Shown here: positions 34,545 through 58,831 of the stretch, piece after piece | Position numbering within the stretch: the first letter of the stretch is position 1 | How the letters are laid out: every line of letters begins with the position of its first letter | Origin: an uncultured bacterium | GTDB taxonomy: Bacteria > Fidelibacterota > UBA2242 | Length of the DNA stretch: 64,000 nucleotides | Direction: 5' to 3' | Assembly: GCA_964576275.1 (NCBI GenBank) | Contig: CAZNUN010000003.1 | Coordinates: 136,730 to 200,729 of the forward strand | The notes under the pieces: generated by a model | The model's input: the letters and a program-made list of their open reading frames with translations, nothing else | Databases searched by the model: none | Told to the model about the DNA's origin: nothing | Position numbers and translations under genes: made by a program

Positions 34545-34562
34545 CCTGAAACCGTAAAAGGG

Positions 34563-35519: not shown

Positions 35520-36463
35520 TTGAAGTACAGAATCTGGTAAAGCATTACGGGACTGTCAAGGCCGTGGATGATATTTCGTTCACCGTCGAACGGGGCGAGA
35601 TTCTCGGCTTTCTCGGTCCGAATGCCGCCGGTAAAACCACCACGATGCGCATAATTACAGGTTTTATGCCATCTTCTGCTGGAACGGTCAAAGTTGCCGG
35701 CTATGATGTTTTCGAACAGGGTTTGGAAGTCAAGAAACGGATTGGTTATCTGCCGGAAAATCCGCCGTTGTATACCGATATGCGCGTGCGCGATTATCTG
35801 CGCTTTGCCGCCCGGATCAAAGGAGTCAATCCTAAAACTATCGATGTCGAAGTCAATCGCGTGGCCGAGCGCATGTCGGTCACCGGCGTCATGGATAAGC
35901 ATATCAGCAAATTATCCAAAGGTTATAAGCAACGCGTCGGCTTTGCCCAGGCCCTGCTGAATAACCCGCCGGTGCTGATATTGGATGAGCCGACCAACGG
36001 TCTTGATCCGCGCCAGATTATCGAAGTGCGCGAAATAATCAAAAGCCTCGGCAGCGATCATACCGTCATTCTTTCGACTCACATCCTGCCGGAAGTCAGT
36101 ATGACCTGCAACCGCGTTGCGATCATTAATGAAGGCAAATTGGTCAAGATCGACACGCCTGATAATCTAACGACGCAACTGCGTGGCTCGGAATCGATTT
36201 TACTGGAAGTCGAGGGGCCGGTGGCTGAAGTCCAGGCGGCTTTCAGTCAGCATAATCTGGTAACGGCCGTGTCCGCTCAACCCGGCCGGCGGGATGACCT
36301 GGCCGATTACAAGGTCGAAGCAGCGGTCGGCTCCGATATTCGGCGCGACCTGGCCGCCCTGGTCGTCAATCGCGGCTGGGGTTTACTGGAAATGAAATCC
36401 GAAAGCCTGAGCCTCGAAGATATTTTCCTGAAACTTACGACCAAAGAAGAGGAGGTCAACTGA
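35517..36463 (+). CDS. ABC transporter ATP-binding protein (GldA-like)
   Basis: GTG start 5 nt after GGAGG, beginning 'MIEVQNLVKHYG'. Walker A 'GPNAAGKTT', signature 'LSKGYKQRV', Walker B 'ILDEPT'. Confidence 0.8.
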
Positions 36464-36464
36464 A

Positions 36465-37232
36465 ATGGGCAATTTACTGGCAATCTATAAACGGGACCTG
36501 AAGGGATACTTTTCTTCACCGATCGCCTATGTCGTCATCGGTCTTTTCCTGATCGTCACCGGGATTTTCTTTTATCTGATCCTGAACAGTTTTCTGCAGT
36601 ACAGCTACGCGGTAATGATGCAGAGACAGGGCGCCACGGTGAATGTCAACCTGCAGATGATCCGCCCGTTCTTTTTGAACATGAGTGTCATCGTATTGTT
36701 CGTGATCCCGATGATCACGATGCGTAGTTTTTCCGAGGAGAAAAAGAGCGGCACGATGGAGCTCCTGCTGACCTCGCCGCTGACCAACTGGCAGGTGATT
36801 ATCGGCAAATACCTGGCGACCTTTACGCTTTACTTTGTAATGGTCATGGTCACCTTTCTGTTTATGGTCTTCCTGTTCGTTTGGGGTAAACCGAATATGT
36901 GGCCGATTCTGATCAGTTATCTCGGAATTCTCCTGATGGGTATGGTTCTAATTGCCGTCGGGAATTTCATTTCTTCACTGACCGAGAACCAGATCGTTGC
37001 AGCAGTTGGAACGTTTGGCGCCACGATGCTTTTGTGGGTGATCGGCTTTGCCGGAGATTTTGCCGGTAAGGTGTTTGGTGAATTATTCAAATATCTTTCG
37101 ATTGTCAACCACTTCGAGGATTTTTCCAAAGGGGTTTTCGACACCAGTCATCTGGTCTATTACCTCTCACTCTCTTTCCTGATGTTGTTTTTAACCTATC
37201 AGTCAATCGAATCTTCCAAGTGGAGGGGTTAA
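36465..37232 (+). CDS. ABC-2 type permease (GldF-like)
   Basis: Six predicted TM helices. It starts 1 nt after the ATPase stop. ABC-2 family features. Confidence 0.7.
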   Translation: MGNLLAIYKRDLKGYFSSPIAYVVIGLFLIVTGIFFYLILNSFLQYSYAVMMQRQGATVNVNLQMIRPFFLNMSVIVLFVIPMITMRSFSEEKKSGTMELLLTSPLTNWQVIIGKYLATFTLYFVMVMVTFLFMVFLFVWGKPNMWPILISYLGILLMGMVLIAVGNFISSLTENQIVAAVGTFGATMLLWVIGFAGDFAGKVFGELFKYLSIVNHFEDFSKGVFDTSHLVYYLSLSFLMLFLTYQSIESSKWRG

Positions 37233-42166: not shown

Positions 42167-42201
42167 TCGCAACCCGTAACTCGTAACCCGTAACCCGCAA
42201 C
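42167..42201. repeat. 5x tandem heptamer YCGYAAC
   Basis: The units are TCGCAAC, CCGTAAC, TCGTAAC, CCGTAAC and CCGCAAC. They lie directly 3' of the stop of the minus-strand serine hydrolase gene, and related GTGACGA/GTAAC words occur just upstream. Confidence 0.6.
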
Positions 42202-43415
42202 TATTCCGCCAGACTGCCGGCGACGATATTGGCGACTTTGGCGCGCAGCGGACCGGCATCCCCGTCCGGCAGATGCACGCGGTTGGTCAGGATAATGATG
42301 AAAGTTTGCGTAGCCGGATCAATGACGACGGATGTGCCTGTAAAACCGGTATGCCCGAAAGCTGTTTTAGGCAGCAGGTCACCCATCAAAGAATAATGCG
42401 AGACGTTGACGCCCCAGCCCAGGCTGCGTTCCGAAAAGGCAAAGTCGGGATAGACTGTGCCGATCAGCTTGACCGAGAGCGGTGAAAGGATGTGCGTTTT
42501 GCCATAAGTGCCGCCGTTTAAAATCATCTGGCAGAAAATCGCCAGGTCGTCGACGCATGAAAAGAGTCCGGCGTTGCCGGAAACACCGCCCAGCAGTTGG
42601 GCCAGCGGGTCGTGGACTTTGCCACGCAGCGGATTGCCGTTCATGACTTCGGTCGGTACGATGCGGGGCAGCAGGTCAGCCGGCGGGAGATATTGCGTGC
42701 TGGTCATGCCGAGTGGCAGGAAAATGTTTTCGCGCGAGAACTGGGCAACATTTCGCCCGGAAACGCGCCGGACGATTTCGCCGAGCGTAATGAATCCGAG
42801 GCAGCTGTAAGCATACTTATCGCCGGGCGCACTCCGCTTTTTAATGGTGGCGATAGTTTGAATCAGCTGATCGTAACATGGCTCACCGTATTTTTCACGC
42901 AGCGCAGCGGCGTTTGTGTAAGGCGGCAAACCGGAGGTATGCGTCAGCAGGTGGACGATGGTCGGAACTTCAGCCGTATCGCCATTTTCGGCGACGAATG
43001 GGAGGAAGTCCGGAATGTACTTCGTGACTTTATCAGTCAATCGGATCTGGCCGGATTCGATCAGCATCATCACAGAAGTAGTGGTGGCGACGGATTTGGT
43101 GACCGAAGCCATGTCGAACAGATTATCAGCGGTCATCGGTTCTTTCTGAGGGACGATTTGAGAATTGCCATAGGCTTTGCGGAAAACCACGTTGCCGTTG
43201 CGGGCGACCAGGATGACGGCGCCCGGTATATGCCCGGCGGCGATTTCGGAAGTGACCGCGTCGTCGATTTTCTGCAGGCGCATGGCGTCGACACCGGTTT
43301 TTCCGGTCGGTTTATATTGCAGCAGGCGACCGCTATCGGCCTGACCCAATCCGAGGGCGGTATTCAATGCTAAAAGTAATCCGGTGATCAGAATTCGTTG
43401 CGATTTCATTTTCAT
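42201..43415 (-). CDS. beta-lactamase-fold serine hydrolase (class C / PBP4*-like)
   Basis: Signal peptide. 'DMASVTKSV' is an S-x-x-K active-site motif. Length 404 aa, with a 'YAYS' Y-x-N-like region. Confidence 0.8.
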   Translation of the reverse strand: MKMKSQRILITGLLLALNTALGLGQADSGRLLQYKPTGKTGVDAMRLQKIDDAVTSEIAAGHIPGAVILVARNGNVVFRKAYGNSQIVPQKEPMTADNLFDMASVTKSVATTTSVMMLIESGQIRLTDKVTKYIPDFLPFVAENGDTAEVPTIVHLLTHTSGLPPYTNAAALREKYGEPCYDQLIQTIATIKKRSAPGDKYAYSCLGFITLGEIVRRVSGRNVAQFSRENIFLPLGMTSTQYLPPADLLPRIVPTEVMNGNPLRGKVHDPLAQLLGGVSGNAGLFSCVDDLAIFCQMILNGGTYGKTHILSPLSVKLIGTVYPDFAFSERSLGWGVNVSHYSLMGDLLPKTAFGHTGFTGTSVVIDPATQTFIIILTNRVHLPDGDAGPLRAKVANIVAGSLAE

Positions 43416-43427
43416 TCTCCAGTAGAA

Positions 43428-44066
43428 TTATCTTAATGAATCGATAGGAATATCCAGATTAGGCTTTCCTTCATATCCCTTGTAATCGAAGTGCCACCAT
43501 TCGCTGGGCAGCGGAGTAAAGCCGTGGCGGACCATCGCATCTTCCAGAATCTGGCGGTTGCGGAGAGCTTCAGGAGGCAAATCCATATAATTGCGCCGGG
43601 CTTTGGCGGAGAAATTATCAAATTCGGTCGGCATTAAAAGCGGTTTGCCATTCAAATCCAGCAGGCTGACATCGACTGCATATCCGCGATTGTGACGGGA
43701 GCCCGTGGCGGGATCGGCCACGAATTCCGGATTGGGCAAAATCCCCCACATTATTTTCTGGACGGAGAGCGGTCGGTAACCGTCAAATACGACGAGCTGA
43801 TAGCCCTGCTCTTTCAGGTCTTGCTGAACTTTAGCCAGGGCTTTGGCGGCCGGTTTGACCAGAAAACAGCGCGCGGAAGGATAAAGCACTTTGCCGACGA
43901 AATTATTGTCGGTGGCGTAGCGAATATCAAGCACGACATCGGGAATAACCTGATTCAGTTCGACCAATTGTGGCAGGCGGTCACATTGAATAGTCGTGAA
44001 AACTAAAAAGGCCGCCAGTATGATACGTAGCAATTTCACATTGCCGGATAAGTTGGATTTTTTCAT
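43428..44066 (-). CDS. D-alanyl-D-alanine dipeptidase (VanX/DdpX, peptidase M15D family)
   Basis: 'VFDGYRPLSVQ' and 'SRHNRGYAVDVSLLD' (S-x-H-x-x-G-x-A-x-D zinc site), followed by a 'WWHFDY' region. AGAGG RBS before the internal ATG at 44066. Confidence 0.7.
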   Translation of the reverse strand: MKKSNLSGNVKLLRIILAAFLVFTTIQCDRLPQLVELNQVIPDVVLDIRYATDNNFVGKVLYPSARCFLVKPAAKALAKVQQDLKEQGYQLVVFDGYRPLSVQKIMWGILPNPEFVADPATGSRHNRGYAVDVSLLDLNGKPLLMPTEFDNFSAKARRNYMDLPPEALRNRQILEDAMVRHGFTPLPSEWWHFDYKGYEGKPNLDIPIDSLR

Positions 44067-44177
44067 AATGCCTCTCATTATATCAATAGTTTAATGGTCG
44101 GGAGGCGGGAAAGCAAATTTTTCACCGTTGGAAATATTTAAATAATAGATTATCTTCAGGGCAGTTTTGGTGAAACT

Positions 44178-44732
44178 GTGAAGATGAAGGTCATTGAATC
44201 AATATTGCAGAAAAGTCTGAATGAGCGCAACACCCGAAAGATCGCCCAGTTTAATCCAGGGCTGATGGGTGACCAGGATTCCCGCGTTCGCCTGCTGATT
44301 TGTCTGCCGTTCGATTATGCTCATTTTTACACGGCACTCAGGGTATTTTTACCGGTAATCCGGCAGCATCCGGCCATCAGCAGGCTGGTTGTTACCCAGG
44401 CGCTTTTTCCATTGATTAAAGAGATTGATCCTGATCTGCTGATTCCATTGATTGTTACCCGGATCGATGAAGCCGGATTCCCGACGGATCCGGACTTATT
44501 GGCGATAATGAGCGCCGAATTAGTAGTAGCAATCGACCTAAATCTGAGGCCTTCGGTGACCTCGGCCGCCATCGTGGCGCGCAGCCGGGCTCATATCCGG
44601 GCTGGCTTTCAGACCGAATTCTCGGAGGATTTGTTCAATTTGATCCTGACCTGTAAGTCTGACAATCTGGTGGAGAATGTCTATAGGCGCATTTGGACAT
44701 TGGTACAACCGGAAATCTTGAAGTCCATATAA
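44178..44732 (+). CDS. hypothetical protein
   Basis: 184-aa ORF preceded by an AAGGTGA-like sequence. No recognisable motif. Confidence 0.3.
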   Translation: MKMKVIESILQKSLNERNTRKIAQFNPGLMGDQDSRVRLLICLPFDYAHFYTALRVFLPVIRQHPAISRLVVTQALFPLIKEIDPDLLIPLIVTRIDEAGFPTDPDLLAIMSAELVVAIDLNLRPSVTSAAIVARSRAHIRAGFQTEFSEDLFNLILTCKSDNLVENVYRRIWTLVQPEILKSI

Positions 44733-44794
44733 AAATTACTTGACGCACAAGCCTTCGGCGTGTATATTTAGCGCCATAAAAAAGGTGATAATAG

Positions 44795-45211
44795 ATGGAA
44801 GATTTAGTTTGTCCCGAATGTGGCGCCCCTCTCAAAGAAGAAGAATTGAAAGAGTCTCTGATCTGTCCGCATTGCAAAACCAATTTACGGGATTCCAAAT
44901 ATCTCGACTTTCTGGAACTGTTGGTTTATTACGACATTGTAGACGACATTGATTTTTTCGATATGAGTCTTTACGGTGAAGAAATGCTTAAAAACGAGCG
45001 CGAAGACTACGACGAACCGGACATCGATCCCTCCAAATTTGAGAAGAAGAAAGAGGTCTGGGATGAATTCGAGGACGACATCGAATTGAACGAAAATTTA
45101 TCCGAAGAAACCGAAGAAACCGAAGATCCCTGGAACCTTGTGGACAACGACATTCCCTTTGAGGATGACTGGAATGAAGAAAATGATGACCGTGAGCGGG
45201 ATGATTATTAA
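44795..45211 (+). CDS. zinc-ribbon protein with hyper-acidic C-terminal tail
   Basis: AAGGTGA RBS. 'CPECG...(17)...CPHCKT' CxxC-CxxC pattern. The last roughly 95 aa are about 45% Asp/Glu. Confidence 0.45.
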   Translation: MEDLVCPECGAPLKEEELKESLICPHCKTNLRDSKYLDFLELLVYYDIVDDIDFFDMSLYGEEMLKNEREDYDEPDIDPSKFEKKKEVWDEFEDDIELNENLSEETEETEDPWNLVDNDIPFEDDWNEENDDRERDDY

Positions 45212-45228
45212 TATGATGTGAAGGAAAA

Positions 45229-45549
45229 ATGAACACACCTAAACCGGTCCAAATCCAAATTGAATTGCCAGAGGCGAAAGCAGAAGGCAATTACAGCAAT
45301 TTTACCGTAATATCCCACTCCGGGGCCGAATTTGTACTCGATTTCGCGCGCGTCATGCCCGGCACACCCAAAGCTGTGGTCCAGAGCCGTATTATTCTGA
45401 CTCCGATCCATGCCAAGACCCTGTTGTTTACCCTGCAGGACAATATTGCCAAGTTCGAATCCAAATTTGGGGAGATCAAGCTTCCCGAAAAGGAAGCTTA
45501 TCTGCCTTTCGGTTTACCGCCGGAAGATACCAGCAAGTTGCCGAACTGA
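45229..45549 (+). CDS. DUF3467-like protein
   Basis: 'YSNFTVISHSGAEFVLDFARVMPGTPKAVVQSRIILTPIHAKTLL' matches the DUF3467 pattern. It starts 17 nt downstream of the acidic protein gene. Confidence 0.55.
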   Translation: MNTPKPVQIQIELPEAKAEGNYSNFTVISHSGAEFVLDFARVMPGTPKAVVQSRIILTPIHAKTLLFTLQDNIAKFESKFGEIKLPEKEAYLPFGLPPEDTSKLPN

Positions 45550-45571: not shown

Positions 45572-47614
45572 TTATAGATTTTCCCTGAAGAAAGCTACCG
45601 CCTTGCGGAAAAGATCGTACTGATCGGCGCTTTTTCGAATCGTGCTGCTTTCCCACGGATAGAGATTAAAGTCAACTTTCTTGTGTCTGGCTAACAGCTC
45701 GGGGAGCAGACGATTGGCTTCGATCAATTCCGGCAGGCAGCTGGCGGCTCCTTGAACCATGAGGAAACGTCCACCCAGATAATGGTAATATTTGTGAGGA
45801 TCGATATCGGCAGCAATCTGCTGATCGTCAAGTAGTAAATTCGTCAGATAGCGCAGGTAATTACTTTCCGGATGCGACCATTCCAGGGCGCTGGTCACGG
45901 CGAACCCAGTCCGGAAAACCGTCGCCTCTTTGAACATCGCCATGGTTGCCAGATACCCGCCGTAACCCCAGCCGCAAATCCCGGCGCGGGCTAAATCGAC
46001 ATAATCTAATTTGCCGATGTTATCTAAAACCGCCCGCAGATCTGATAGTTGCACGGACAGCGGGTCCTGGATTCCCGGCTTAACAGTCAGAGTGGCAGCG
46101 GTTCTCAGGTCGGTATATTCGATCGCCACGACCACATAGCCGTTGTTGCTCAGGATTTGATAAAAGAATATATCCGGGCGCCAGGCTTCCGTTGTGACTT
46201 CTACACAGTCGATGCCGTTCAGCACAATGATGACGGGATATTTGCGGGCGACCAGATTGCCGTCCGGCAACCACATACGGTAATTGATAAGGCGTCCGGT
46301 CAGCGGATTTATAGCCGCGCCGGATTTGGGAAGTTTGTTTCGGAAGGTGCCGGCAGGAGCCAGCGGGCGTTTCGTAATCGGATTCATTTTACTTTGCGGA
46401 GCGGCTTCGATCCAATAAAGTTCGGGAGGGGTGAGCTGATCGGAAAAGACCTCGACGATTTTTTGACCTGAATTGGAAAGTCGGAAGCGGTAATCACCGC
46501 CGCGATACGAGACAGGAGCTATCTCGCCGGTTTTCAGATGGGCGAGGTATAATTGCAATTGGTCGGGCCGGTCTTTGGTTCCAGTAAAATAGACCGTTTG
46601 ACCGGCGGCGTCGATAGTGTAATTTCGTACGTTCCATTTACCGCGGGTCAGGGCATTATATCGTCCGGTTTCCACCTCCAGAGTATATAGGTGATTGAAA
46701 GAATTGTTTTCAATGCCGAACAGGATTTTCGCTTCCGGTTCGATCCAGTAGAGCTGGTAGCCGAAATCCGCCACCCGGTTTTCACGGATTTCACGATATA
46801 GAGTATCCATACGGCTGTCTATCAGATCGATGAGCACCAGGCAGCGTTCCAGTAAATTTTTTGAAACCGATTCAAAGACGAGATTCTGATCGTCGGGAGA
46901 CCAGATAAAATTGCGCACTATGGAAAGGCGGTTTGGGGGATTTTTAATCACAATTTCGTCCTGCGCGCCGTTTGTAACGTTTACTATTTTAAAACGCACC
47001 GCGTTATCTTGCTGGTCCGAAGCTAGACAAATGGCGATCCGGTCGCTGCGATGCGACCATCGATAATCAGTTATTTGTAAACCGGTCCGGGAGTCAGAGT
47101 AACCACTAATCCTGATTTCCGGAAGGACGGCTTGGGCTTTGTCGGCCGTCAGATCGTACAGAACCAGCGCGCCCTGCCTCCCGTAGGTCAGATATTTTCT
47201 GTTTGGCGACAGAGACACCGGACTTTCGCATTGGGAAATTCCTTCAATCCGCCGTAATGTGCGTTCATGTAAAAGACCGGCGATCCAAATGTCACCCTGG
47301 AATTCAAAACATAGACTGCGGTTAGTTAACCAGGCGACCGTGCCGATTGCCGGAAAATCGAGATTCAATTCCGGGTTGAAACTGGTCAGTCGTTCGAGCT
47401 GGCCGGTCAATGGATTAGCGACCCACAAGTTGCGAAATTCCTCACCCTGATCGTTCCATAAAAATGCAATCAGCGAATCATTTGGCGACCAGATCATCTG
47501 CTGCGGGTCCGCCCCTGACTGATAGGGCGGTGAGAAGAGCATCTGCAGGTCGGGCGGATCCGCGGCGGTGGCTATCGTTCCGCAGATCATCAATATTGCC
47601 AGGAATTTCCTCAT
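45572..47614 (-). CDS. S9/DPP-IV-family peptidase homolog with substituted catalytic triad (likely pseudoenzyme)
   Basis: Signal peptide, an N-terminal TolB/beta-propeller-like repeat region, and a C-terminal alpha/beta-hydrolase domain collinear with DPP-IV. 'GWSYGGY' reads GWGYGGY (the Gly codon GGT is complementary to plus 45965-45967). The Asp region reads 'MVQGAAS' and the His region reads 'YPWESS'. Confidence 0.7.
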   Translation of the reverse strand: MRKFLAILMICGTIATAADPPDLQMLFSPPYQSGADPQQMIWSPNDSLIAFLWNDQGEEFRNLWVANPLTGQLERLTSFNPELNLDFPAIGTVAWLTNRSLCFEFQGDIWIAGLLHERTLRRIEGISQCESPVSLSPNRKYLTYGRQGALVLYDLTADKAQAVLPEIRISGYSDSRTGLQITDYRWSHRSDRIAICLASDQQDNAVRFKIVNVTNGAQDEIVIKNPPNRLSIVRNFIWSPDDQNLVFESVSKNLLERCLVLIDLIDSRMDTLYREIRENRVADFGYQLYWIEPEAKILFGIENNSFNHLYTLEVETGRYNALTRGKWNVRNYTIDAAGQTVYFTGTKDRPDQLQLYLAHLKTGEIAPVSYRGGDYRFRLSNSGQKIVEVFSDQLTPPELYWIEAAPQSKMNPITKRPLAPAGTFRNKLPKSGAAINPLTGRLINYRMWLPDGNLVARKYPVIIVLNGIDCVEVTTEAWRPDIFFYQILSNNGYVVVAIEYTDLRTAATLTVKPGIQDPLSVQLSDLRAVLDNIGKLDYVDLARAGICGWGYGGYLATMAMFKEATVFRTGFAVTSALEWSHPESNYLRYLTNLLLDDQQIAADIDPHKYYHYLGGRFLMVQGAASCLPELIEANRLLPELLARHKKVDFNLYPWESSTIRKSADQYDLFRKAVAFFRENL

Positions 47615-47653: not shown

Positions 47654-48319
47654 TCAGTTGTTCGGCGCCGTTTTTTCTAACCAGAAGATGCATTGAGCGT
47701 GAAAAAACCGCAGCGGTTTGCGCATTTTTACGACTTTCAGACCGCAGTCCTGCAGTTCGGTTTCCCACTGTTTACGCGCGATCAGAGTCATACGGCGCTT
47801 GCGGCCTGAAAGCACTTGGGTCAGGCGATGAAAACCGGATTCAAGATAAACGGATACGATCAGCGTCCGACGAGAGACACGGGTGAGCTCTTTTAGTAAT
47901 GTCACGCGTTCGGCGCTGGTTTTAAAATGCTGCAAGAGTCGGAAATTGAACACGACGTCTACCATGTTGTCGCAAAACGGCAGACAATTGCCGTTGGTGA
48001 CAACCGACATGCGGATATCCAAGTTGCAGCGCTGCTGATAGATTAAAGCATACAGGTTCAGGTCGCCGTTGATCACACTGAAGCCGTATTTTCTGAAAAA
48101 CTGGGTAAACCGCCCGTAGCCGGCCGGCATGTCGAGTAAAGTTTGTTTTGGTCCCGCCAAATCCTTCAGATAATCGTCTATGATGTGTTGTTCGCGCCAG
48201 GAAATCAACCGCTGATCCAAGTGTAGATAGCGGCTGCGGGCATAATTTTCAACGGCTTCGACGCTCTGCCAGGTGACGGCATAGGCTGGGCGCGGGTCTG
48301 ACGGTTCGGATTTACTCAA
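47654..48319 (-). CDS. class I SAM-dependent methyltransferase
   Basis: Motif I 'LLDMPAGYGRF' and a Methyltransf_11-like layout. Length 221 aa. Confidence 0.6.
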   Translation of the reverse strand: MSKSEPSDPRPAYAVTWQSVEAVENYARSRYLHLDQRLISWREQHIIDDYLKDLAGPKQTLLDMPAGYGRFTQFFRKYGFSVINGDLNLYALIYQQRCNLDIRMSVVTNGNCLPFCDNMVDVVFNFRLLQHFKTSAERVTLLKELTRVSRRTLIVSVYLESGFHRLTQVLSGRKRRMTLIARKQWETELQDCGLKVVKMRKPLRFFHAQCIFWLEKTAPNN

Positions 48320-48448: not shown

Positions 48449-49093
48449 TCAATTCCGCAGTCTGAAGATCACCGGAATGGCGATGTATACTCCGACGTTG
48501 CGATCACGCTGCTGAGCCGGAATGAAACGAACTTTCCGGATAGCGTCTATGGCGGCTTCTTCCAGCCCGGTGTTCGGCATGCCTTTTAAGACCGAGCATT
48601 CGGTGACTTCGCCGCGCTTGTCAACGAAAGCCCGTATAACGACCGTCCCCTCAATGCCGGCTTCCTGGGCAATCGCCGGGTAGATTATATTTTTTTGAAT
48701 GGCTGCGTATCCACCAATCGGCTCCGGATCTTTATCATAAACAATAAAGGTATCACGAAGAATTCCAGCCTCCGGCGGCAGGGGCGGCGGCGCATCCCAG
48801 GGTTGATAGGATCCGAAATTGACCGGTTCGAGAGTAATATCGGGAGATAAATCCGGCTCATCAGAAGGTAGCGGAAGTGACGGGCGGGCGGGTGGTTTGG
48901 ACGGCTCGGTGGGATTATCGACTATTGGAGGAGTGACTGTCGTAATAATTATTGGTGGGGTCCGCATAACGACCTCGTTCTTTTTGACTTTTGGAAAGGC
49001 CAACAACAGAATGATCAGTATGACAAGTATTCCAACCAGAGCCAGACGCAAGACCAATGGCTGGCTGGTTTTCAAATCATTTTTTGATTTCAT
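48449..49093 (-). CDS. energy transducer TonB (paralog 1)
   Basis: N-terminal TM, a Pro-rich spacer, and a C-terminal TonB domain 'GIEGTVVIRAFVDKRGEV...GVYIAIPVIFRL'. Confidence 0.75.
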   Translation of the reverse strand: MKSKNDLKTSQPLVLRLALVGILVILIILLLAFPKVKKNEVVMRTPPIIITTVTPPIVDNPTEPSKPPARPSLPLPSDEPDLSPDITLEPVNFGSYQPWDAPPPLPPEAGILRDTFIVYDKDPEPIGGYAAIQKNIIYPAIAQEAGIEGTVVIRAFVDKRGEVTECSVLKGMPNTGLEEAAIDAIRKVRFIPAQQRDRNVGVYIAIPVIFRLRN

Positions 49094-49218: not shown

Positions 49219-49887
49219 CTATGTCTTGAGTTTGAAAATTACCGGGATCGAAATATAGACGCCGACATTGCGGTCTCTTTGTTTAGCCGGTTTGAAACGG
49301 GTTTTTTTGATTGCGGCGATGGCGGCTTCCTCAAGGCCGGTATTGGGCATGCCTTTGAGGATTATACATTCGGAAACCACGCCGAATTCATTGACAAAGG
49401 CCTGCACGACAACGGTGCCTTCGATGCCGGCCTCCTGAGCGATTTCAGGATAGACGATATTTTTTTGAATGGCGGCAAATCCGCCCATCGGTTCCGGGGC
49501 CTCATCGTAAGGAATGAACCTGACGCGTGGACCTTCGTCGCCACTCTGCTGTTCCGGTGGGGGCGGCGGGGCTTCCCAGGCAGTATAGGAATCAAAGTCA
49601 GTTGTCTCGTCAATTGTAATATCTTCGGACAGGTCTTCGTTGTCTGATTCGATCGGAATTGAAGGCCGGGAGGGTGGCTTGGCCGCTTCGATCTTCTGTT
49701 CGATCTGGGGCATTTCAGTAGCCTCGATGACAAATTCGACTTTCCGTTGCTCAACCACGCCTTTTTCAAATTTTGGGAAAGCCAGCATTATGCCGGTGAT
49801 CAGAACCAGACTGGAAACTAACCCGATCCGCAACATCAGAGGTTGGCGTAATTTTAAACTTGCTTCGGGTTTTTTTCTTAGTATCAT
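49219..49887 (-). CDS. energy transducer TonB (paralog 2)
   Basis: Same architecture as paralog 1; the C-terminal domain 'GIEGTVVVQAFVNEFGVV...GVYISIPVIFKL' is nearly identical to it. Confidence 0.75.
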   Translation of the reverse strand: MILRKKPEASLKLRQPLMLRIGLVSSLVLITGIMLAFPKFEKGVVEQRKVEFVIEATEMPQIEQKIEAAKPPSRPSIPIESDNEDLSEDITIDETTDFDSYTAWEAPPPPPEQQSGDEGPRVRFIPYDEAPEPMGGFAAIQKNIVYPEIAQEAGIEGTVVVQAFVNEFGVVSECIILKGMPNTGLEEAAIAAIKKTRFKPAKQRDRNVGVYISIPVIFKLKT

Positions 49888-49897
49888 GCTATTGTCC

Positions 49898-50305
49898 TTA
49901 AATAGCTGTTTTGGTGGAATAATTAACTTTCAGGGCGTCCGCAAGGCGCAGCTCCTTGTGGATACTGCTCATCAGTGACATATTCACCCTTTCATCCGCT
50001 CGGATTGATACGGTCAGCTGCGGATCGTTTTCACGTTTTTCGTAGAGAATCATTCTAAGACTGTTAACATTGACTAATTTACCGTCGATAGAAATCAATT
50101 CTTCCTTAGAAACCCAGAGTTGGGTCACGTGCACTTTCGAAGTCAGTTTTTCGATCTGCTTGGCTTTTGGCATAATGACCGGCAGGCCGGAATACTGGCG
50201 CATAACCGAAGAAGCCATGAAGAAAAAGATCAACATGAAGACAATATCCGGCATCGAGGAGGTGGGAATTGCAACATTTACTTCTTTTTTATGTTTAAAG
50301 GCCAT
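49898..50305 (-). CDS. exbD: ExbD/TolR biopolymer transport protein
   Basis: 135 aa with a single N-terminal TM 'IVFMLIFFFM' and the ExbD fold. Confidence 0.8.
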   Translation of the reverse strand: MAFKHKKEVNVAIPTSSMPDIVFMLIFFFMASSVMRQYSGLPVIMPKAKQIEKLTSKVHVTQLWVSKEELISIDGKLVNVNSLRMILYEKRENDPQLTVSIRADERVNMSLMSSIHKELRLADALKVNYSTKTAI

Positions 50306-50318
50306 TAATCAAACTCCT

Positions 50319-50729
50319 CTATTCGGCGATCGAGATACGGGTGGCCTTGGCCTGCTTAAGCTGGTCGAGCACCTCGATATATTTATCGTAGCGGCAACGG
50401 GGGTGAGCTTTTACGGAAAAGATCATTTTATCATTATTCGCAAGGTAACCTTCACAGATTCCTCTGATGCGATTGATTTCCACTTCTTTTATCTGTCCGA
50501 GATGCCCAACCATAACCGCCCCCTGGGGATCGATTGTGATTGTGGTAATGTTTTGCTTCGGAATTTCGACGGGAGCGTCGCCTTCCGGAGGAAGGATCAG
50601 CCCGATTCCTTTATCGGTGTCAATCGTAGTAGCCACCATAAAGAAAATCAGCAGGAGAAAGGCAATGTCGGCCATCGACCCGGATGGAATCTCAACTTTG
50701 CGCATTCCCTTTTTTTTCATCAGAGCCAT
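50319..50729 (-). CDS. exbD: ExbD/TolR biopolymer transport protein (second copy)
   Basis: 136 aa with TM 'IAFLLLIFFMVAT'. Confidence 0.8.
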   Translation of the reverse strand: MALMKKKGMRKVEIPSGSMADIAFLLLIFFMVATTIDTDKGIGLILPPEGDAPVEIPKQNITTITIDPQGAVMVGHLGQIKEVEINRIRGICEGYLANNDKMIFSVKAHPRCRYDKYIEVLDQLKQAKATRISIAE

Positions 50730-50731: not shown

Positions 50732-51358
50732 TTAATCTCTGTTCTCCTTTTTATCGTCTATATTTGTCAGGGTTTCCAGCAGGCTCATGGTACTCTCTTC
50801 CATTTCAACTACGATACCATCCACCCGAGCGGTAAACAGGTTGTAAGCAATCTGCATCGGTACTGCGACGATCAGACCAAAAAGAGTCGTTAAAAGAGCT
50901 TCCGAAATACCACCGGCCACGATCGCGGGTGAAATGTCATTGGCGGCTGCGATCGCATCGAAAGCGCCAATCATACCGGAAACAGTTCCGGCGAATCCCA
51001 GCATCGGCGCTAAAGTGATGACAGTAGCCAGCCATATCATACCTTTATCAAGGAAGGCCATCTCGACCGTACCGGCGCTCTGAATGGCTTTTTCGACGGC
51101 TGCCATTCCGGAGTTCATTTTCTCAAGCCCGGCATGGAAAATCTCGGCGATCGGGCCGGGAGTGCTTTCGCACAATTGCAGCGCTTTCTCGACGCCATCT
51201 TCTTTGACGACCTTTGTAACTTTGGGAACGAAGCGTTTGGTAGCCCACGAGGCTTTAGCTAAGGTGTAAATTCTTTCAATTGTAACCATTAGTCCAAATA
51301 CCATTAAAGCCAGAATCGGCCACATGAACATTCCGCCTCTGAGAAACAGTTCAACCAT
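50732..51358 (-). CDS. exbB: ExbB/TolQ/MotA proton channel
   Basis: Three TM helices and a 'GLLGTVxGM'-like motif (GFAGTVSGMIGAF). Confidence 0.85.
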   Translation of the reverse strand: MVELFLRGGMFMWPILALMVFGLMVTIERIYTLAKASWATKRFVPKVTKVVKEDGVEKALQLCESTPGPIAEIFHAGLEKMNSGMAAVEKAIQSAGTVEMAFLDKGMIWLATVITLAPMLGFAGTVSGMIGAFDAIAAANDISPAIVAGGISEALLTTLFGLIVAVPMQIAYNLFTARVDGIVVEMEESTMSLLETLTNIDDKKENRD

Positions 51359-53162: not shown

Positions 53163-53636
53163 TCAGAACAGATCTATGACCTTTTTGGCGATGGCTTCCA
53201 GCAGGGCTCGTTCAGCATTACCAAAGCGTGCGGGACGATGCGAATCGATGTCAAGTTCGCCTAAAAACGTACCGTTTTTTATTATTGGGATGACGATCTC
53301 GGAGCGAACGTCCAGACTACACGCCAGATAATTCGATTCGGCGCTGACATCGGCAATATTGATGGTATCCAGGGTCACGGCAGCCTGTCCACAGACTCCG
53401 CGACCGAAGGGTATGCGGACATGCTCGGTCGGCGCGCCGGCGAACGGTCCGAGAACCAGTTCCCGGCATTTATGATCGCTCAGATAAAAACCAACCCAGT
53501 CGAAATCTTCGATATTAGTTTTGAGATAATGGCAAACTGCCAGCAGTTTTTCATCCCGGCTGCTACGACTGTTCAATATCCGCCGGATAGCATTCAGCGG
53601 AGCACGGGAGGATTGCGGGGCGGCTGACTTTTTCAA
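53163..53636 (-). CDS. GAF domain protein (free Met-R-sulfoxide reductase-like)
   Basis: 157-aa GAF fold with 'DWVGFYL', 'GPFAGAPTEHVRIPFGRGVCGQAA' and 'ADV...LACSLDVRSEIVIPI' motifs typical of the fRMsr/MsrC family. Confidence 0.65.
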   Translation of the reverse strand: MKKSAAPQSSRAPLNAIRRILNSRSSRDEKLLAVCHYLKTNIEDFDWVGFYLSDHKCRELVLGPFAGAPTEHVRIPFGRGVCGQAAVTLDTINIADVSAESNYLACSLDVRSEIVIPIIKNGTFLGELDIDSHRPARFGNAERALLEAIAKKVIDLF

Positions 53637-54976
53637 ATTTTAATGAAAATTTTCCTCTTATACAGAATCAAGGCCAATCCAAACCAGATCAGAATATAGC
53701 AGCACGCCCAGAGCAGAGAAGCATTCATTGGTGATAGCAAAGGTTGGAAATAATTATTGTAAAGGAATGTTTTCAGGGCGATCGGATTGCCTTCCGGACC
53801 GGGAACTTTCCACCAGTAAACCAGGGCGCGGGCGGTCAGACTTGACAGGGCATATACCGTAATGGCATTCGATCCGAAAATGACAAACGGCTGCGCCCAA
53901 CCTTTGTAGCCGCGAATGTCTATCAGCCAGTAACACATGCCCAGAAACAGCAACGCCATTCCGGCCATGAAAACAGTATAGGATGGCGACCAGAGGTTTT
54001 TGTTGATCGGGAACCAGATGCCCAGGATTTCGCCTAACACCAGACCGATGATTCCAAAGACAAACAGACCGGTGACCTTTTCGTAATCATTTTTAGTGGT
54101 CCGGAGCCAGTGCGCCGTCAGTACCCCGAAGAGCACCGAAGAAATCGCTGGAATTGTACTTAATATACCTTCCGGATCGAATCCGGCAGCTGGAGCGCCG
54201 CTCCAGGTGTGACCGGCTAATAGTTTTGAATCAATCCACCAAGCCAGATTACCCATGGTATTCTGGTGTGTCGTCGGATCGGTGATCAAGGCTAAGACGC
54301 CTGCACCATAGCCTGGCACCGGTACTAATTTCATCAGTAGCCAGTAGACAACCAGAAATCCAATCGCTAGGTAAGCCTGCCCTTTCACACTGCAATTCAG
54401 TACGATGATAGATGCAATGCAGTAAGTGACCGCAATTCTTTGCAGTACTCCCGGAATCCGTAGTTTGGACCAATCGAGACCTTGAAGGGCACTGCCGGCC
54501 AAAATCAACGCCAGGACGATCAAGGTCCACTTCAGGGTTTTCAGATAATTCGTTTTAATGTCAGACTTGACTGCAAACTTTACCGTAAGATAAGCTGCCC
54601 AACAGATTAGAAACAATCCACCGAAAATTCTAAGAACGAGCGGAGGAATTCCTTTAAATGCCGTCAGATATAAGCCGATTAAAAACAGTAAGGCGGTGCG
54701 TTTCAGAATTTTCAGATAGAGGCTGACGGCGGGAGCTCCGGAAGACTGTCGGTTTGCGAAAGCATAGACGATCGCTACTCCGACGATGAAAAGGAAAAAT
54801 GGGAAAATGAAATCGGTAGGCGTCCAGCCATTCCAGGCGGCATGTCGGAGTGGTGGATAGATCGCACTCCAGGTGCCCGGATTGTTAACCAAAATCATTC
54901 CAGCAATCGTGATACCCCGGAAAGCATCCAGCGAAATGAGACGGTTTGATTTTTTTATCAGGTTCGGTTCGCTCAT
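53633..54976 (-). CDS. DUF1624/DUF5009 (HGSNAT-like) polytopic acyltransferase-family membrane protein
   Basis: 'RLISLDAFRGITIAGMILVNNPG' N-terminal signature and about 11 TM helices. It overlaps the GAF gene by 4 nt. Confidence 0.6.
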   Translation of the reverse strand: MSEPNLIKKSNRLISLDAFRGITIAGMILVNNPGTWSAIYPPLRHAAWNGWTPTDFIFPFFLFIVGVAIVYAFANRQSSGAPAVSLYLKILKRTALLFLIGLYLTAFKGIPPLVLRIFGGLFLICWAAYLTVKFAVKSDIKTNYLKTLKWTLIVLALILAGSALQGLDWSKLRIPGVLQRIAVTYCIASIIVLNCSVKGQAYLAIGFLVVYWLLMKLVPVPGYGAGVLALITDPTTHQNTMGNLAWWIDSKLLAGHTWSGAPAAGFDPEGILSTIPAISSVLFGVLTAHWLRTTKNDYEKVTGLFVFGIIGLVLGEILGIWFPINKNLWSPSYTVFMAGMALLFLGMCYWLIDIRGYKGWAQPFVIFGSNAITVYALSSLTARALVYWWKVPGPEGNPIALKTFLYNNYFQPLLSPMNASLLWACCYILIWFGLALILYKRKIFIKI

Positions 54977-56498: not shown

Positions 56499-57893
56499 TT
56501 GCGGATAATGGCTTCGATCATAATTATAGATGATGATATAGGTATTCGCGACCTGCTAAAGGAATCGCTGGAATCTGGCGGACACGAGACAATCGGATTT
56601 TCTTCCGCCGAAGAAGCCTTGCAGCATCTGGATAAATATGATCCGGAACTGATCTTGCTGGATTTAAATTTACCGGGAATGCACGGTTTCGAATTTTTGG
56701 AAAAAGCCCAAAACTGGAATCTAAATGTGCCCGTTGTAGTCGTAACCAGTAACAGCGACGTCGCTTCGGCTGTCAAGGCCATGAAACTGGGCGCGTTCGA
56801 TTATATCTGCAAACCGTTCAATCTTGAAGAACTGTCTTTTATAATCCAAAAAGTCATCGATAGCAGAATTAAAGACGATCATATTGCATACCTGCGCCGT
56901 AAGAGTCAATATTCCGATTTTGAACGCATCGTCGGTGACAGCGCTCCGATGCGGGAAGTGTATAGGTTTATCGATCAGGTCGCCAGTACCGACAAGACCA
57001 CCGTTTTAATCCGTGGTGAGACCGGAACCGGCAAGGAATTGGTTGCCAAGGCTATTCACTATCAGAGCAACCGCGCCAATAAACCATTTATCGATATCAA
57101 TTGTTCAGCATTCAACGAAAATCTACTGGAAGCCGAGTTGTTTGGTTATGAGTCCGGCGCATTCACCGATGCCAAGCACCGCAAGAAAGGACTGCTGGAA
57201 TTGGCGCATCAGGGGACCTTTTTCCTGGATGAAATCGGCGATATGGCGATCGGTCTGCAGGCCAAAATATTAAAAGTTATCGAGAAACAAACATTTCGCC
57301 GACTCGGCGGGACTCAGGAAATTAAAGTCGACACCCGTATAATCAGCGCAACCTCACGTGACCTGGAAGAAGGAATCAAGAAAAAAACCTTTCGGGAAGA
57401 TCTATATTACCGCTTGAATGTTGCTACCATCACCCTGCCACCACTCAGAGACCGACGCAATGACGTTCTGGCATTGGCTGATTTTTTCCTGAATATGTAC
57501 AACCGGGAATTCAAGAAAAATATCAAAGGTTTTAGCGCGGAAGTTCGGGCGATACTGAGTAAATATACCTGGCCGGGGAACGTTCGCGAATTACGCAACG
57601 CTATTGAAAAGGCTGTTCTGTTTGAGACTCACGATCAGATCACCACGGTCAATTTCAAGATCGTCGGTCTGGATAACGGAAAGAATATCCATTTCCTTAC
57701 TTCACCGGCCAATTTTATTCTTCCTCTGGACGGCATTTCTCTCAAGGAAATAGAGAAAGCCCTGATCGAAAACGCCTTGATTTCTACCCGCGGCAATCAG
57801 TCAAAAGCAGCCAAACTTCTAAAGATCAGCCGCGAAACATTTAAATACCGAATGCGAAAGTATAACGTTCGTTATGGCCAAAGCCAAATGTAA
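56499..57893 (+). CDS. sigma-54-dependent response regulator (NtrC family: REC-AAA-Fis HTH)
   Basis: REC D-box 'LILLDLNLPGMHG'. Sigma54-activator motifs 'GETGTGKELVAKAIH', 'GAFTDA' and 'ESELFGYE' (as EAELFGYE). C-terminal HTH 'QSKAAKLLKISRETFKYRMRK'. Confidence 0.9.
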   Translation: MRIMASIIIIDDDIGIRDLLKESLESGGHETIGFSSAEEALQHLDKYDPELILLDLNLPGMHGFEFLEKAQNWNLNVPVVVVTSNSDVASAVKAMKLGAFDYICKPFNLEELSFIIQKVIDSRIKDDHIAYLRRKSQYSDFERIVGDSAPMREVYRFIDQVASTDKTTVLIRGETGTGKELVAKAIHYQSNRANKPFIDINCSAFNENLLEAELFGYESGAFTDAKHRKKGLLELAHQGTFFLDEIGDMAIGLQAKILKVIEKQTFRRLGGTQEIKVDTRIISATSRDLEEGIKKKTFREDLYYRLNVATITLPPLRDRRNDVLALADFFLNMYNREFKKNIKGFSAEVRAILSKYTWPGNVRELRNAIEKAVLFETHDQITTVNFKIVGLDNGKNIHFLTSPANFILPLDGISLKEIEKALIENALISTRGNQSKAAKLLKISRETFKYRMRKYNVRYGQSQM

Positions 57894-58145
57894 CTATTCG
57901 TATGAACCAGGCGAGGTGGTTTGAATCAACCAAAAATTGGTTGATATTTTCCAGGTTGAACCGCAATCTATGTTTTTGACCTGCCTATTTGCTTTGGGTT
58001 GAATGAAAAAATATTATTGAGCGATTGAAAATGTTAATCATGTTAATTATATTGATTATTGCGATGTTGCTTCAATTTGCTATTTTAAAAACGGTGATTC
58101 TGGTCAAAGCTCGATTTGGATAAAATGTATAAAGTGGTATAGATT

Positions 58146-58174
58146 TTGAATGTGTAAAAAAGGTTGTTTATAAT
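58146..58174 (+). promoter_or_regulatory. sigma70-like promoter TTGAAT-17-TATAAT
   Basis: TTGAAT at 58146-58151, a 17-nt spacer, then TATAAT at 58169-58174. The GGAGGTG RBS and ATG 58204 follow about 25 nt downstream. Confidence 0.5.
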
Positions 58175-58203
58175 ATCATTTTTCTTATTATGGAGGTGTT
58201 GAA

Positions 58204-58791: not shown

Positions 58792-58831
58792 TTGAATTGG
58801 AAAAACTAAAATTAATAGGTGGGGTAACTAA

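Follow-up and report, generated by a model that had tools for sequence, protein, structure and literature searches.

A DPP-IV-fold protein family of Fidelibacterota that has lost the Ser-Asp-His triad and is probably non-catalytic

A 64,000-nucleotide stretch of DNA from an uncultured member of the Fidelibacterota (hereafter the window) encodes a protein that has the S9/DPP-IV fold and carries, as far as sequence comparison can tell, no usable Ser-Asp-His triad. We refer to this protein as pseudo-DPP-IV. With the triad unusable, pseudo-DPP-IV is therefore predicted to be non-catalytic, and comparison with its relatives supports this conclusion. It has no catalytic residues and yet is selected across Fidelibacterota, so it looks like a repurposed pseudo-enzyme.

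The pseudo-DPP-IV gene lies at 45572..47614 on the minus strand, with a TAA stop codon at 45572-45574, and encodes 680 aa, as a preliminary description of this DNA had stated. That description had also given the protein the propeller plus alpha/beta-hydrolase architecture of DPP-IV/S9 enzymes, an assignment that Pfam, a phmmer search of PDB sequences and an AF2 model all upheld. Indeed, Pfam matched DPPIV_N at residues 201-397 (2.5e-26) and Peptidase_S9 at residues 486-680 (6.6e-13), that is, the N-terminal propeller followed by the C-terminal Peptidase_S9 domain that is expected of S9B proteins. The top PDB matches were bacterial DPP-IV enzymes (5yp1, 1e-28; 2d5l, 6e-28), and the AF2 model reached a pLDDT of 83.4. 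Model secondary structure, the constraint-shift table and the family alignment placed the beta-propeller at residues ~20-405 (46400..47557, minus strand), where 31 predicted strands fit 8 four-stranded blades. The alpha/beta-hydrolase domain, once catalytic, was placed by the Pfam Peptidase_S9 assignment at residues 456-680 (45575..46249, minus strand).

Residues 1-17 (47564..47614, minus strand) form a predicted Sec signal peptide on the basis of N-terminal features, with a cleavage site inferred between MRKFLAILMICGTIATA and AD. Equivalent N-termini were found in 17/17 family members: an MKK or MRK n-region, a hydrophobic core of ~14 aa whose hydropathy peaks at residue 4, and a c-region of small residues. 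None of the 17 members had a further TM-like segment. A lipoprotein was considered and rejected, Cys11 of the query being unconserved in the family and outside any lipobox. Pseudo-DPP-IV would be, judging from these N-termini, a Sec-exported, soluble and periplasmic protein.

The preliminary description had reported substitutions at all three triad positions. Alignments and codon reading placed Gly550 where the elbow G-W-G-Y-G-G-Y would carry its nucleophile; phmmer aligned this elbow to GWSNGGY/GWSYGGF of PDB entries. The GGT codon of Gly550 is at 45965..45967 on the minus strand, within ggc tgg GGT tac ggc ggg tat, and the codons read exactly as had been claimed (GGT complementary to plus 45965-45967). 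The catalytic Asp position is occupied by Ser625 (AGC, 45740..45742, minus strand), in QGAASCLP instead of HGxADDNV, and the phmmer alignment paired "mvQGAASCLP" with "liHGMADDNV". The catalytic His position is occupied by Ser657 (AGC, 45644..45646, minus strand), "YPWESSTIR" being paired with "YPGAKHGLR". In an HMM alignment, S, D and H fill the three triad columns in 158/158 triad-bearing relatives, and Ser625 and Ser657 sit in the D and H columns, which confirmed the acid and His substitutions described as VQGAASCL and YPWESSTI.

The triad loss thus stood, and the list of losses proved incomplete. The oxyanion-hole Tyr position (Tyr547 in human DPP4) is held by Asn466 (AAC, 46217..46219, minus strand; HMM alignment and codon read); most active relatives have Y or H in this column, and the family has N, S, H, K or R. 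The equivalents of N710 and V711 are Leu and Pro. Where DPP-IV has its N-terminus-anchoring Glu-Glu helix, alignment and pLDDT indicated a loop, residues 165-183 (47066..47122, minus strand). Active relatives read DWVYPEEL or EFIAQEEL in this segment, the family having a shorter, unrelated stretch, and residues 168-181 had a pLDDT below 50 in the AF2 model. The features that mark an active S9B peptidase, namely the Ser-Asp-His triad, the Glu-Glu motif and the oxyanion Tyr, are all absent.

We then considered how far these losses extend beyond the window. The family alignment comprised 17 full-length members, falling into ~10 clusters at 50% identity, and all genome matches of the family were to Fidelibacterota or unclassified MAGs. 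The triad was lost at all three positions in 17/17 full-length members (HMM-column table), so related genomes do share the substitutions, a check that the preliminary description had proposed. The nucleophile column held G in 14 members, H in 2 and N in 1, against S in 158/158 active relatives. The acid column held S, G, A, P or N, against D in 100% of active relatives, and the base column S, C, G, N, P, D, A, E, T, L or Y.

These data bear on the possibility of an artefact or of a pseudogene in decay, that is, that a sequencing or assembly error hit the Ser codon or a peptidase gene was recently inactivated. GGT is one transition away from AGT, and one related MAG (L019) harbors a copy that is frameshifted, truncated and C-terminally deleted, which also indicates that the gene can be dispensable. 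However, the triad is lacking at all three positions in independent samples, both in P0001, an identical protein, and in 16 full-length homologues that have diverged. Because orthologues from independent metagenomes and MAGs, at 26-68% identity, have non-Ser, non-Asp and non-His residues there, sequencing error is excluded, as the three substitutions had already been taken to argue. Moreover, the window and over 15 independent contigs from metagenomes or MAGs have intact ORFs whose lengths stay within 666-694 aa, and dN/dS was 0.10-0.24 for unsaturated pairs of family members. The family is deeply diverged and monophyletic (100/100 NJ bootstraps), and a profile search left a score gap between its members, at least 459 bits, and the best triad-bearing match, 345 bits. 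Orthologues, dN/dS and monophyly rule out a sequencing error or pseudogene, to which we attach a negligible probability. The pseudo-DPP-IV gene is under purifying selection, and the distribution of the substitutions indicates a triad loss ancestral to the monophyletic clade, with a single origin. With homology to S9B, loss of the catalytic residues and maintenance of the gene all observed, the protein qualifies as a non-peptidase S9B homologue, and it is highly probable that it is a conserved, catalytically dead S9B homologue.

Pseudo-DPP-IV might nevertheless have kept enzymatic activity, as a hydrolase whose apparatus is non-canonical or as a catalyst of other chemistry, the classical triad having moved. 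Evolution has put alpha/beta-hydrolase folds to use in other chemistries as well. Purifying selection is strong, the protein keeps the geometry of the elbow and its G-x-x-Y-G-G motif (58% identity in the family), and invariant polar residues specific to the family exist (R234, R257, D270, T271, R324, S43, H308 and K409). Against this, the elbow residue varies (G, N, H), the acid and base positions are hypervariable and the oxyanion Tyr is gone. Twenty positions that are at least 80% conserved in active enzymes are lost in the family; 17/20 are in the hydrolase domain, and these 17 conserved positions close to the active site are relaxed. Across the 17 members, the hydrolase domain contains no invariant Ser, Cys, Thr or His, nor any invariant Asp/Glu, at or near the triad positions. 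D540 is at least 90% conserved, but it is common to active enzymes and upstream of the elbow, and H308 and several other invariants are likewise structural motifs common to active DPP-IVs. An alternative Ser/Asp/His triad, which the preliminary description had named as evidence that would overturn its reading, was searched for in the alignment of the 17 members, and no conserved substitute emerged. Candidates involving S579-H580, C626 and E629 were rejected, none being conserved in the family; S579-H580 is specific to the query and not kept even in relatives at 54-68% identity. Segments of the former pocket are the least conserved stretches of pseudo-DPP-IV: mean pairwise identity within the family was 9% for residues 165-183 (the Glu-Glu loop) and 21% for residues 574-612, versus 37% overall. 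Taken together, retained enzymatic function appears quite improbable to us; a non-proteolytic activity via other residues would still be conceivable from the sequence.

Constraint of another kind is seen elsewhere in the protein. Mean identity within the family was 36% for the hydrolase domain and 37% for the propeller. The constraint-shift table contained 43 conserved positions peculiar to the family, mostly in the propeller, where they include D46, S47, F79, R234, R257, D270, T271, F284, G285, R324, Y370 and F377. Family-specific residues cluster at three places: blades 5-6 of the propeller, with three invariant Arg and Asp-Thr; the P-x-S-K-M linker between the domains; and Y-P-W. The latter signature, Y652-P653-W654, precedes Ser657; all members of the family have Y652 and W654, and active relatives lack W654. 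A new site may reside in the propeller. As purifying selection and conserved residues of its own followed the loss of the triad, pseudo-DPP-IV would be a neofunctionalized pseudo-enzyme.

The scenario that we propose runs as follows. The ancestor would have been a bacterial DPP-IV-type (S9B) peptidase, whose peptidase chemistry was permanently lost in a single event, in an ancestor within Fidelibacterota (Marinimicrobia/SAR406). Descent would have kept the 8-bladed propeller, the alpha/beta-hydrolase architecture and the strand-turn-helix "elbow", and discarded the Ser nucleophile, acid, base, oxyanion Tyr, Glu-Glu anchor and most S1/S2 pocket residues. After the loss, the gene would have remained under purifying selection and gained new conserved residues. 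Pseudo-DPP-IV would now act in the cell envelope by binding either another protein or an anionic ligand, away from the old catalytic pocket, and would be co-expressed with a lineage-specific SAM methyltransferase, downstream of ExbB-ExbD-ExbD-TonB genes in most lineages. Taken as a whole, the statement that pseudo-DPP-IV is a neofunctionalized, non-catalytic, Sec-exported periplasmic S9B pseudo-enzyme that binds a partner or an anionic ligand has our moderate confidence. Its role as an envelope binding or scaffold protein, considered separately, is proposed more tentatively, at slightly less than even confidence.

Next, we analyzed the neighboring genes. The methyltransferase gene (47654..48319, minus strand) is 39 bp upstream of pseudo-DPP-IV and encodes a 221-aa class I SAM-dependent enzyme of the Pfam family Methyltransf_11. 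It was found directly upstream in the window and in 16/17 related loci with readable upstream DNA, the exception being L011, and is the most widely conserved partner gene of pseudo-DPP-IV. All 26 homologues found were at least 40% identical, so the methyltransferase family looks narrow and lineage-specific; the sole organism name among them was Marinimicrobia. A specific function was sought for it and none could be assigned, the matches being the generic Methyltransf_11 and weak, sub-threshold NCBIfam models. The methyltransferase is probably cytoplasmic, unlike the exported pseudo-DPP-IV. Upstream of it, at 48388-48360, is a promoter-like TTGACT-17-TAAAAT, a consensus match only.

Further upstream on the minus strand, Pfam and NCBIfam identified genes for ExbB (50732-51358), a first ExbD (50319-50729), a second ExbD (49898-50305), a first TonB (49219-49887) and a second TonB (48449-49093). 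Pfam thus bore out the neighborhood given in the preliminary description, finding Methyltransf_11, a pair of TonB_C proteins, a pair of ExbD proteins and a single ExbB. Its "duplicated TonB/ExbBD block" held in part. A clade-specific second TonB does exist, at 55% identity to the first and limited to the window, L001-L003 (one protein in three samples) and L009, but ExbB-ExbD-ExbD-TonB is the usual FCB-type set, and the two ExbD proteins of the window are 24% identical. Likewise, of the claimed adjacency to a methyltransferase and a TonB block, the former is widely kept and the latter is not universal: besides the window, 13 loci (L001-L004, L006-L009, L015, L018 and L025-L027) have the ExbB-ExbD-ExbD-TonB block upstream of the methyltransferase and pseudo-DPP-IV, and L011, L012 and L017 do not have it.

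On the other side, a convergent three-gene set (44178..45549, plus strand; Pfam), encoding a 184-aa protein, a Zn-ribbon/acidic 138-aa protein and a DUF3467 protein, adjoins the 3' end of pseudo-DPP-IV at every family locus with 3' flank, down to 28% identity. PADLOC gave no defence-system match for pseudo-DPP-IV, the methyltransferase or the three convergent genes. A block of ~20 kb was collinear across the phylum. Much of the synteny around pseudo-DPP-IV may be phylogenetic inertia, and the TonB/ExbBD genes are to be read as context, not necessarily as one functional unit with it.

This gene order could also mean that pseudo-DPP-IV is an accessory of the ExbB-ExbD-TonB machine, either as a TolB-like propeller or as a substrate-capture or adaptor protein for TonB uptake, whose substrate in this phylum could be peptides or muropeptide stems. 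The order ExbB-ExbD-ExbD-TonB-(TonB)-methyltransferase-propeller protein resembles tolQ-tolR-tolA-tolB; the window shares it with the 13 loci, down to ~31-36% identity. Like TolB, pseudo-DPP-IV is predicted to be a periplasmic propeller protein, with PD40-type repeats, and in most lineages its gene lies downstream of MotA/TolQ/ExbB-, TolR/ExbD- and TonB/TolA-type genes. ExbB scored 90 bits for TolQ versus 61 for ExbB, and ExbD 43 bits for TolR versus 28 for ExbD, all far below cut-off. The window also holds a TonB-dependent receptor fragment (27-1439), and the neighbors include an S41 Ctp, upstream, with an M15 D-Ala-D-Ala dipeptidase and a beta-lactamase-family gene nearby. Exogenous muropeptides sustain the cultured member of the phylum, a trait said to be ancestral to it (PMC11652737). 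In contrast, L011 and the L012/L017 clade lack this linkage: there pseudo-DPP-IV follows unrelated genes (T9SS cargo, homocysteine S-methyltransferase) and is conserved nonetheless. A 129-bp gap with the promoter-like match separates the second TonB from the methyltransferase, and both TonB proteins carry TonB_C, not TolA_C. Whereas TolB consists of TolB_N followed by a 6-bladed propeller, pseudo-DPP-IV lacks TolB_N and has the reversed domain order and another propeller; TIGR02800 (TolB) matched it partially, at 18.5 bits for a cut-off of 343. Scanning of window ORFs, a set that did not include those at 33666-37232 and 56499-63376, turned up no Pal/OmpA gene. TolB identity was ruled out by domain content and the TIGR02800 score. 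Because the old pocket and the Glu-Glu anchor are unconserved, peptide capture at the ancestral site is disfavored as well. All in all, we consider an accessory role in the TonB machine unlikely.

Returning to a non-catalytic S9B pseudo-enzyme, we compared pseudo-DPP-IV with the active bacterial enzymes Pseudoxanthomonas mexicana DAP IV (5yp1), Porphyromonas gingivalis PTP (2d5l) and Bacteroides thetaiotaomicron DPP4 (7y4f). They have in common the two-domain architecture, an N-terminal signal peptide and the motifs WSPD, GxxHLY, LTxGxW, GxxYGG, D540 and Y-P. Pseudo-DPP-IV differs by its 43 conserved positions, by the loss of Ser, Asp, His, oxyanion Tyr, Glu-Glu anchor and N710 equivalent, and by a length ~30-70 residues shorter, with deletions at the Glu-Glu helix and in the propeller after residue 204. 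For the B. thetaiotaomicron DPP4 homologue BT4193, enzyme inhibition does not reproduce the envelope-integrity phenotype (bioRxiv 10.1101/2024.05.28.596221). This failure of the inhibitor suggested a structural role for BT4193, and our reading of pseudo-DPP-IV agrees with that hint that DPP-IV-fold proteins are structural in the cell envelope of the FCB group.

To our knowledge, the sole well-studied non-catalytic members with the S9B/DPP-IV fold are animal DPP6 and DPP10. These auxiliary subunits of Kv4 channels have kept the fold for non-catalytic protein binding. Both DPP6 (DPPX) and DPP10 (DPPY) are non-catalytic S9B proteins, and in DPP10 Gly stands where the nucleophile Ser would be (GKGYGG) and the oxyanion Tyr is missing (PMC4350108). 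The change of the nucleophile to Gly is thus found in both DPP10 and pseudo-DPP-IV. However, DPP6/DPP10, in which Asp or Gly replaces the nucleophile, retain the acid Asp, and in DPP10 the His and Glu-Glu are preserved too, whereas pseudo-DPP-IV has lost Asp, His and Glu-Glu alike. DPP6/DPP10 are also type II membrane glycoproteins, while pseudo-DPP-IV is bacterial, predicted to be soluble and signal-peptide-bearing, and has no channel partner. In phmmer, DPP6/10 matched at 4e-8 to 1e-6 (DPP10, 4e-8), versus 1e-28 for bacterial DPP-IV. The best reading would be that pseudo-DPP-IV is an independent bacterial counterpart of DPP6/DPP10. MamO of magnetotactic bacteria, which is reported to bind metal, and CspC of Clostridioides difficile, which is reported to sense a germinant, are likewise serine-protease folds selected after catalysis was lost and re-used for binding; they are trypsin-like and subtilisin-like, respectively, folds unrelated to pseudo-DPP-IV, and have experimentally defined functions. 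A literature search retrieved no account of a bacterial triad-less S9B family. Pseudo-peptidases as such are already known; a phylum-wide bacterial S9B pseudo-peptidase is undescribed.

Pseudo-enzymes are common and seldom characterized in bacteria. The pseudo-DPP-IV family is more extreme than DPP6/DPP10, all catalytic and substrate-anchoring elements being gone while both domains are conserved, and it offers a natural experiment on the capabilities of the DPP-IV scaffold without chemistry. It occurs in the Fidelibacterota, which are abundant and almost uncultured in ocean and subsurface, and its members pose a systematic risk for annotation, since a metagenomic inventory of protein degradation by Marinimicrobia can list them under "DPP-IV/S9 peptidases". 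A bolder reading, which we hold to be rather unlikely, is that pseudo-DPP-IV is a phylum-wide envelope component of Fidelibacterota, in which the DPP-IV shell became a periplasmic receptor or adaptor with an Arg-rich propeller site for an anionic ligand or partner. Stems of muropeptides or peptides could be candidates, and so could a partner linked to TonB/ExbD or to Ctp. If true, this would tie pseudo-DPP-IV to the unusual cell-wall economy of the phylum and, among bacterial S9B pseudo-enzymes, it would be the first to have a defined function other than catalysis.

On the minus strand of the window, positions 45572-47614 form an ORF of 680 aa, the pseudo-DPP-IV gene. The preliminary description had read its product as a propeller followed by an alpha/beta-hydrolase domain, the architecture of S9/DPP-IV enzymes, and this was borne out. 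Pfam placed DPPIV_N at residues 201-397 (2.5e-26) and Peptidase_S9 at residues 486-680 (6.6e-13), both above the gathering threshold. In phmmer searches of the PDB, the closest solved structures by sequence were bacterial S9B enzymes, namely Pseudoxanthomonas DAP IV (5yp1, 1e-28) and Porphyromonas prolyl tripeptidyl peptidase (2d5l, 6e-28), and animal DPP10 and DPP6 were far weaker matches (4e-8 to 1e-6). The AlphaFold2 model, built from a 33-sequence alignment, was confident (mean pLDDT 83.4, pTM 0.85) and showed 31 propeller strands, which fits eight four-stranded blades, followed by the alpha/beta domain. A TolB identity was rejected, as Pfam gave no TolB_N and TIGR02800 scored 18.5 bits against a cut-off of 343. 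The sole NCBI name returned for any family member was "DPP IV N-terminal domain-containing protein".

The catalytic residues were gone. In the phmmer alignments to PDB entries, the elbow G-W-G-Y-G-G-Y faced GWSNGGY/GWSYGGF, the acid segment QGAASCLP faced HGMADDNV, and the His segment YPWESSTIR faced YPGAKHGLR. The codons at the three positions, all on the minus strand, are GGT for the nucleophile (45965-45967, exactly where the preliminary description had put it), AGC for the acid (45740-45742) and AGC for the His (45644-45646). When a single HMM was used to align all 187 retrieved proteins, the triad columns were S/D/H in 158 of them (the active relatives) and G/S/S in pseudo-DPP-IV, in agreement with the earlier claim that all three positions were substituted. 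In the same alignment, the oxyanion-hole Tyr column held Asn466, and the N710 and V711 columns held Leu and Pro. There was no counterpart to the Glu-Glu motif that active relatives carry in the propeller (DWVYPEEL, EFIAQEEL); the loop at this site (165-183) is shorter, hypervariable and modelled at pLDDT <50. We rejected an alternative triad because no invariant Ser, Cys, Thr or His was found in the hydrolase domain of the family alignment. The triad loss and this lack of a conserved substitute residue support the earlier reading of a non-catalytic S9-fold protein.

How widespread are such proteins? A word-indexed search returned one identical protein and eight homologues of 679-682 aa (28-68% identity), one of them named as Candidatus Marinimicrobia. 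When 1.84 billion cluster representatives were searched exhaustively with a profile, about ten 50%-identity family clusters emerged (P0003, P0039-P0047, and fragments); the full-length ones scored 459-1212 bits, versus 345 bits for the best triad-bearing protein. Scanning one genome per GTDB species yielded 13 family loci, nine labelled Neomarinimicrobiota or Marinimicrobia (today's Fidelibacterota, in the FCB group) and four from unclassified bacterial MAGs. The HMM alignment showed that the substitutions are shared, the triad being absent from every family member: the elbow was occupied by G, N or H and the acid position by S/G/A/P/N, and the base position was almost random. A neighbour-joining tree was computed from 17 family members together with 45 active relatives and 5 other S9 proteins lacking the Ser. 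It recovered the family as monophyletic in 100/100 bootstraps; therefore, triad loss occurred once and was then inherited. On these alignments, it is a shared trait of a family and not an accident.

Decay of the gene was rejected. Nei-Gojobori dN/dS between orthologous genes, with dS saturated in pairs including the window gene, was 0.10-0.24 (0.10 for loci L012/L017, 0.12 for L014/L016 and for L006/L007, and 0.23-0.24 for L013 vs L012 and L017), and family ORF lengths were confined to 666-694 aa. Mean pairwise identity was similar in the propeller (37%) and the former catalytic domain (36%). Conservation was weakest in the stretches that had formed the lining of the old active site (EE loop, 9%; residues 574-612, 21%; residues 497-520, 25%), with elbow identity still at 58%. 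Comparing the 17 family members column by column with the 158 active relatives, we found 20 positions at least 80% conserved in active enzymes that were relaxed or replaced in the family, 17 of them in the hydrolase domain. They include D499, R501, G502, G507, G519, S550, P575, V576, Y582, T587, P594, Y601, H621, D625, N627, V628 and H657 (residue of the active enzymes, query number). Conversely, 43 newly conserved positions were at least 85% conserved in the family but <30% in active enzymes. About 33 of these lie in the propeller and linker, among them D46, S47, F79, R234, R257, D270, T271, F284, G285, R324, Y370, F377, P406, S408, K409, M410 and W448; Q621 and W654 are among the others. Judged from sequence conservation, this is the pattern that neofunctionalisation predicts, not decay. 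We show that Ser-His-Asp peptidase chemistry is impossible for pseudo-DPP-IV and that its N-terminus anchor is absent, the gene being maintained nonetheless.

The family can, however, be lost. In the related MAG bacterium KR13_S3.mb.119 (L019:2349-4038), several frameshifts and stops interrupt the DPP-like orthologue, and ~55 codons that would span its former acid and His loops are missing as well. The genes around it, for the methyltransferase, DUF3467, the Zn-ribbon protein, M15 and the beta-lactamase-family protein, remain intact. This copy is probably a genuine pseudogene.

Pseudo-DPP-IV is homologous to S9B peptidases but without their defining catalytic features, and should be filed, on this residue evidence, as a non-peptidase homologue of S9B. 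Like DPP6 and DPP10, it keeps the DPP-IV shell for non-catalytic purposes, and DPP10 shares with it the Ser-to-Gly change and the loss of the oxyanion Tyr (PMC4350108). Yet these form a metazoan group of which it is not a member, and far more is lost in pseudo-DPP-IV. Literature searches returned no description of such a triad-less bacterial S9B family, which is a new, independently evolved bacterial pseudo-peptidase of DPP-IV fold. Five more Ser-less S9 proteins outside the family (P0118, P0119, P0121, P0122, P0174) were among the best 150 profile matches. The same G-W-G-Y-G-G-Y change occurs in unrelated S9 proteins of other phyla (Proteobacteria, Povalibacter, KSB1 and Solibacteraceae), with four Ser-less genes at L020:8828-10927, L021:1262-3319, L022:2608-4653 and L023:9029-10987; the L020 and L023 proteins retain Asp and His, DPP10-like. 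Nucleophile loss is therefore recurrent in bacterial S9 proteins. The finding is solid, clearly bounded and phylum-wide, yet large families can be expected to contain pseudo-enzymes.

The N-termini of all 17 members share a basic n-region, a ~14-residue hydrophobic core and a small-residue c-region, the query N-terminus and predicted cleavage site being MRKFLAILMICGTIATA|AD. None of the 17 has a further hydrophobic segment, and query Cys11 is not conserved in the family alignment. Pseudo-DPP-IV carries no T9SS C-terminal domain, though T9SS cargo is common in these genomes. From these features, we infer a soluble periplasmic protein. Incidentally, the identical protein, P0001, has a public gene call of 672 aa that starts at Met9, leaving out 47591-47614 and cutting off the n-region and half of the signal-peptide hydrophobic core. 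The 680-aa start (ATG 47612-47614, GAGG 9-12 nt upstream) agrees with all homologues.

The minus-strand order in the window is S41 C-terminal processing protease (Ctp), ExbB, ExbD, ExbD, TonB, TonB, Methyltransf_11 and pseudo-DPP-IV. Convergent to this run is a trio at 44178-45549 (+) encoding a 184-aa protein, a 138-aa protein with a Zn-ribbon and a highly acidic tail, and DUF3467. None of the three had an NCBIfam or PADLOC match, and the 184-aa protein had no Pfam match. In a synteny comparison of 21 related loci, the trio was kept, down to 28% identity, in every family locus with its 3′ flank on the contig. The methyltransferase was directly upstream of the DPP-like gene in all loci with readable upstream DNA except L011, and three methyltransferase homologues (43-55% identity) taken as starting points had a DPP-like neighbour each time (3/3). 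A sigma-70-like match, by consensus only, lies within the 129-bp gap that precedes the methyltransferase gene. An ExbB-ExbD-ExbD-TonB block lay upstream in the window as well as in 13 loci, at identities as low as ~31-36%, and was replaced by unrelated genes in the L012/L017 clade and L011. The methyltransferase and TonB/ExbBD neighbours noted earlier were thus confirmed, but the block is not duplicated as a whole. The tandem TonB genes (48449-49093 and 49219-49887, minus strand) are 55% identical, and the second occurs only in the window, L009 and L001-L003 (one protein, three samples). Only one TonB is present in the other relatives, which makes the second a recent clade-specific duplication. 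The two ExbD proteins, at 24% identity, are ancient paralogues. Since gene order in a ~20-kb block is shared throughout the phylum, inheritance and not functional coupling may explain much of the pseudo-DPP-IV synteny.

We also noticed that the ExbB-family (MotA/ExbB) protein at 50732-51358 scored 90 bits for TolQ vs 61 for ExbB, and the ExbD at 50319-50729 scored 43 bits for TolR vs 28 for ExbD, all far below curated NCBIfam cut-offs. A 447-aa ORF without Pfam match (53633-54976, minus strand) lies between FAD-dependent and GAF proteins, and most relatives (L001, L004, L015, L018, L025-L027) retain it in the syntenic block. Beyond the trio, at 42201-44078 (minus strand), an M15 D-Ala-D-Ala dipeptidase with a signal peptide and a beta-lactamase-family (DD-peptidase-like) gene adjoin the block in many relatives, a pair worth noting because the cultured phylum member scavenges muropeptides (PMC11652737).

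As to function, pseudo-DPP-IV would act by binding. Because conservation does not fall on the surface of the old pocket, a partner or ligand would probably be recognised elsewhere, candidate sites being the family-specific invariant Arg/Asp/Thr cluster in blades 5-6 and the P-x-S-K-M linker. Its export, its neighbours (TonB system, Ctp, peptidoglycan-peptide enzymes) and the precedent of the Bacteroides thetaiotaomicron DPP4 homologue BT4193, for which inhibiting activity reportedly does not reproduce the envelope phenotype (bioRxiv 10.1101/2024.05.28.596221), suggest an envelope role. The phylum has a single cultured member, which needs exogenous muropeptides; this dependence, described as an ancestral trait (PMC11652737), makes a part for pseudo-DPP-IV in cell-wall peptide handling an attractive speculation.
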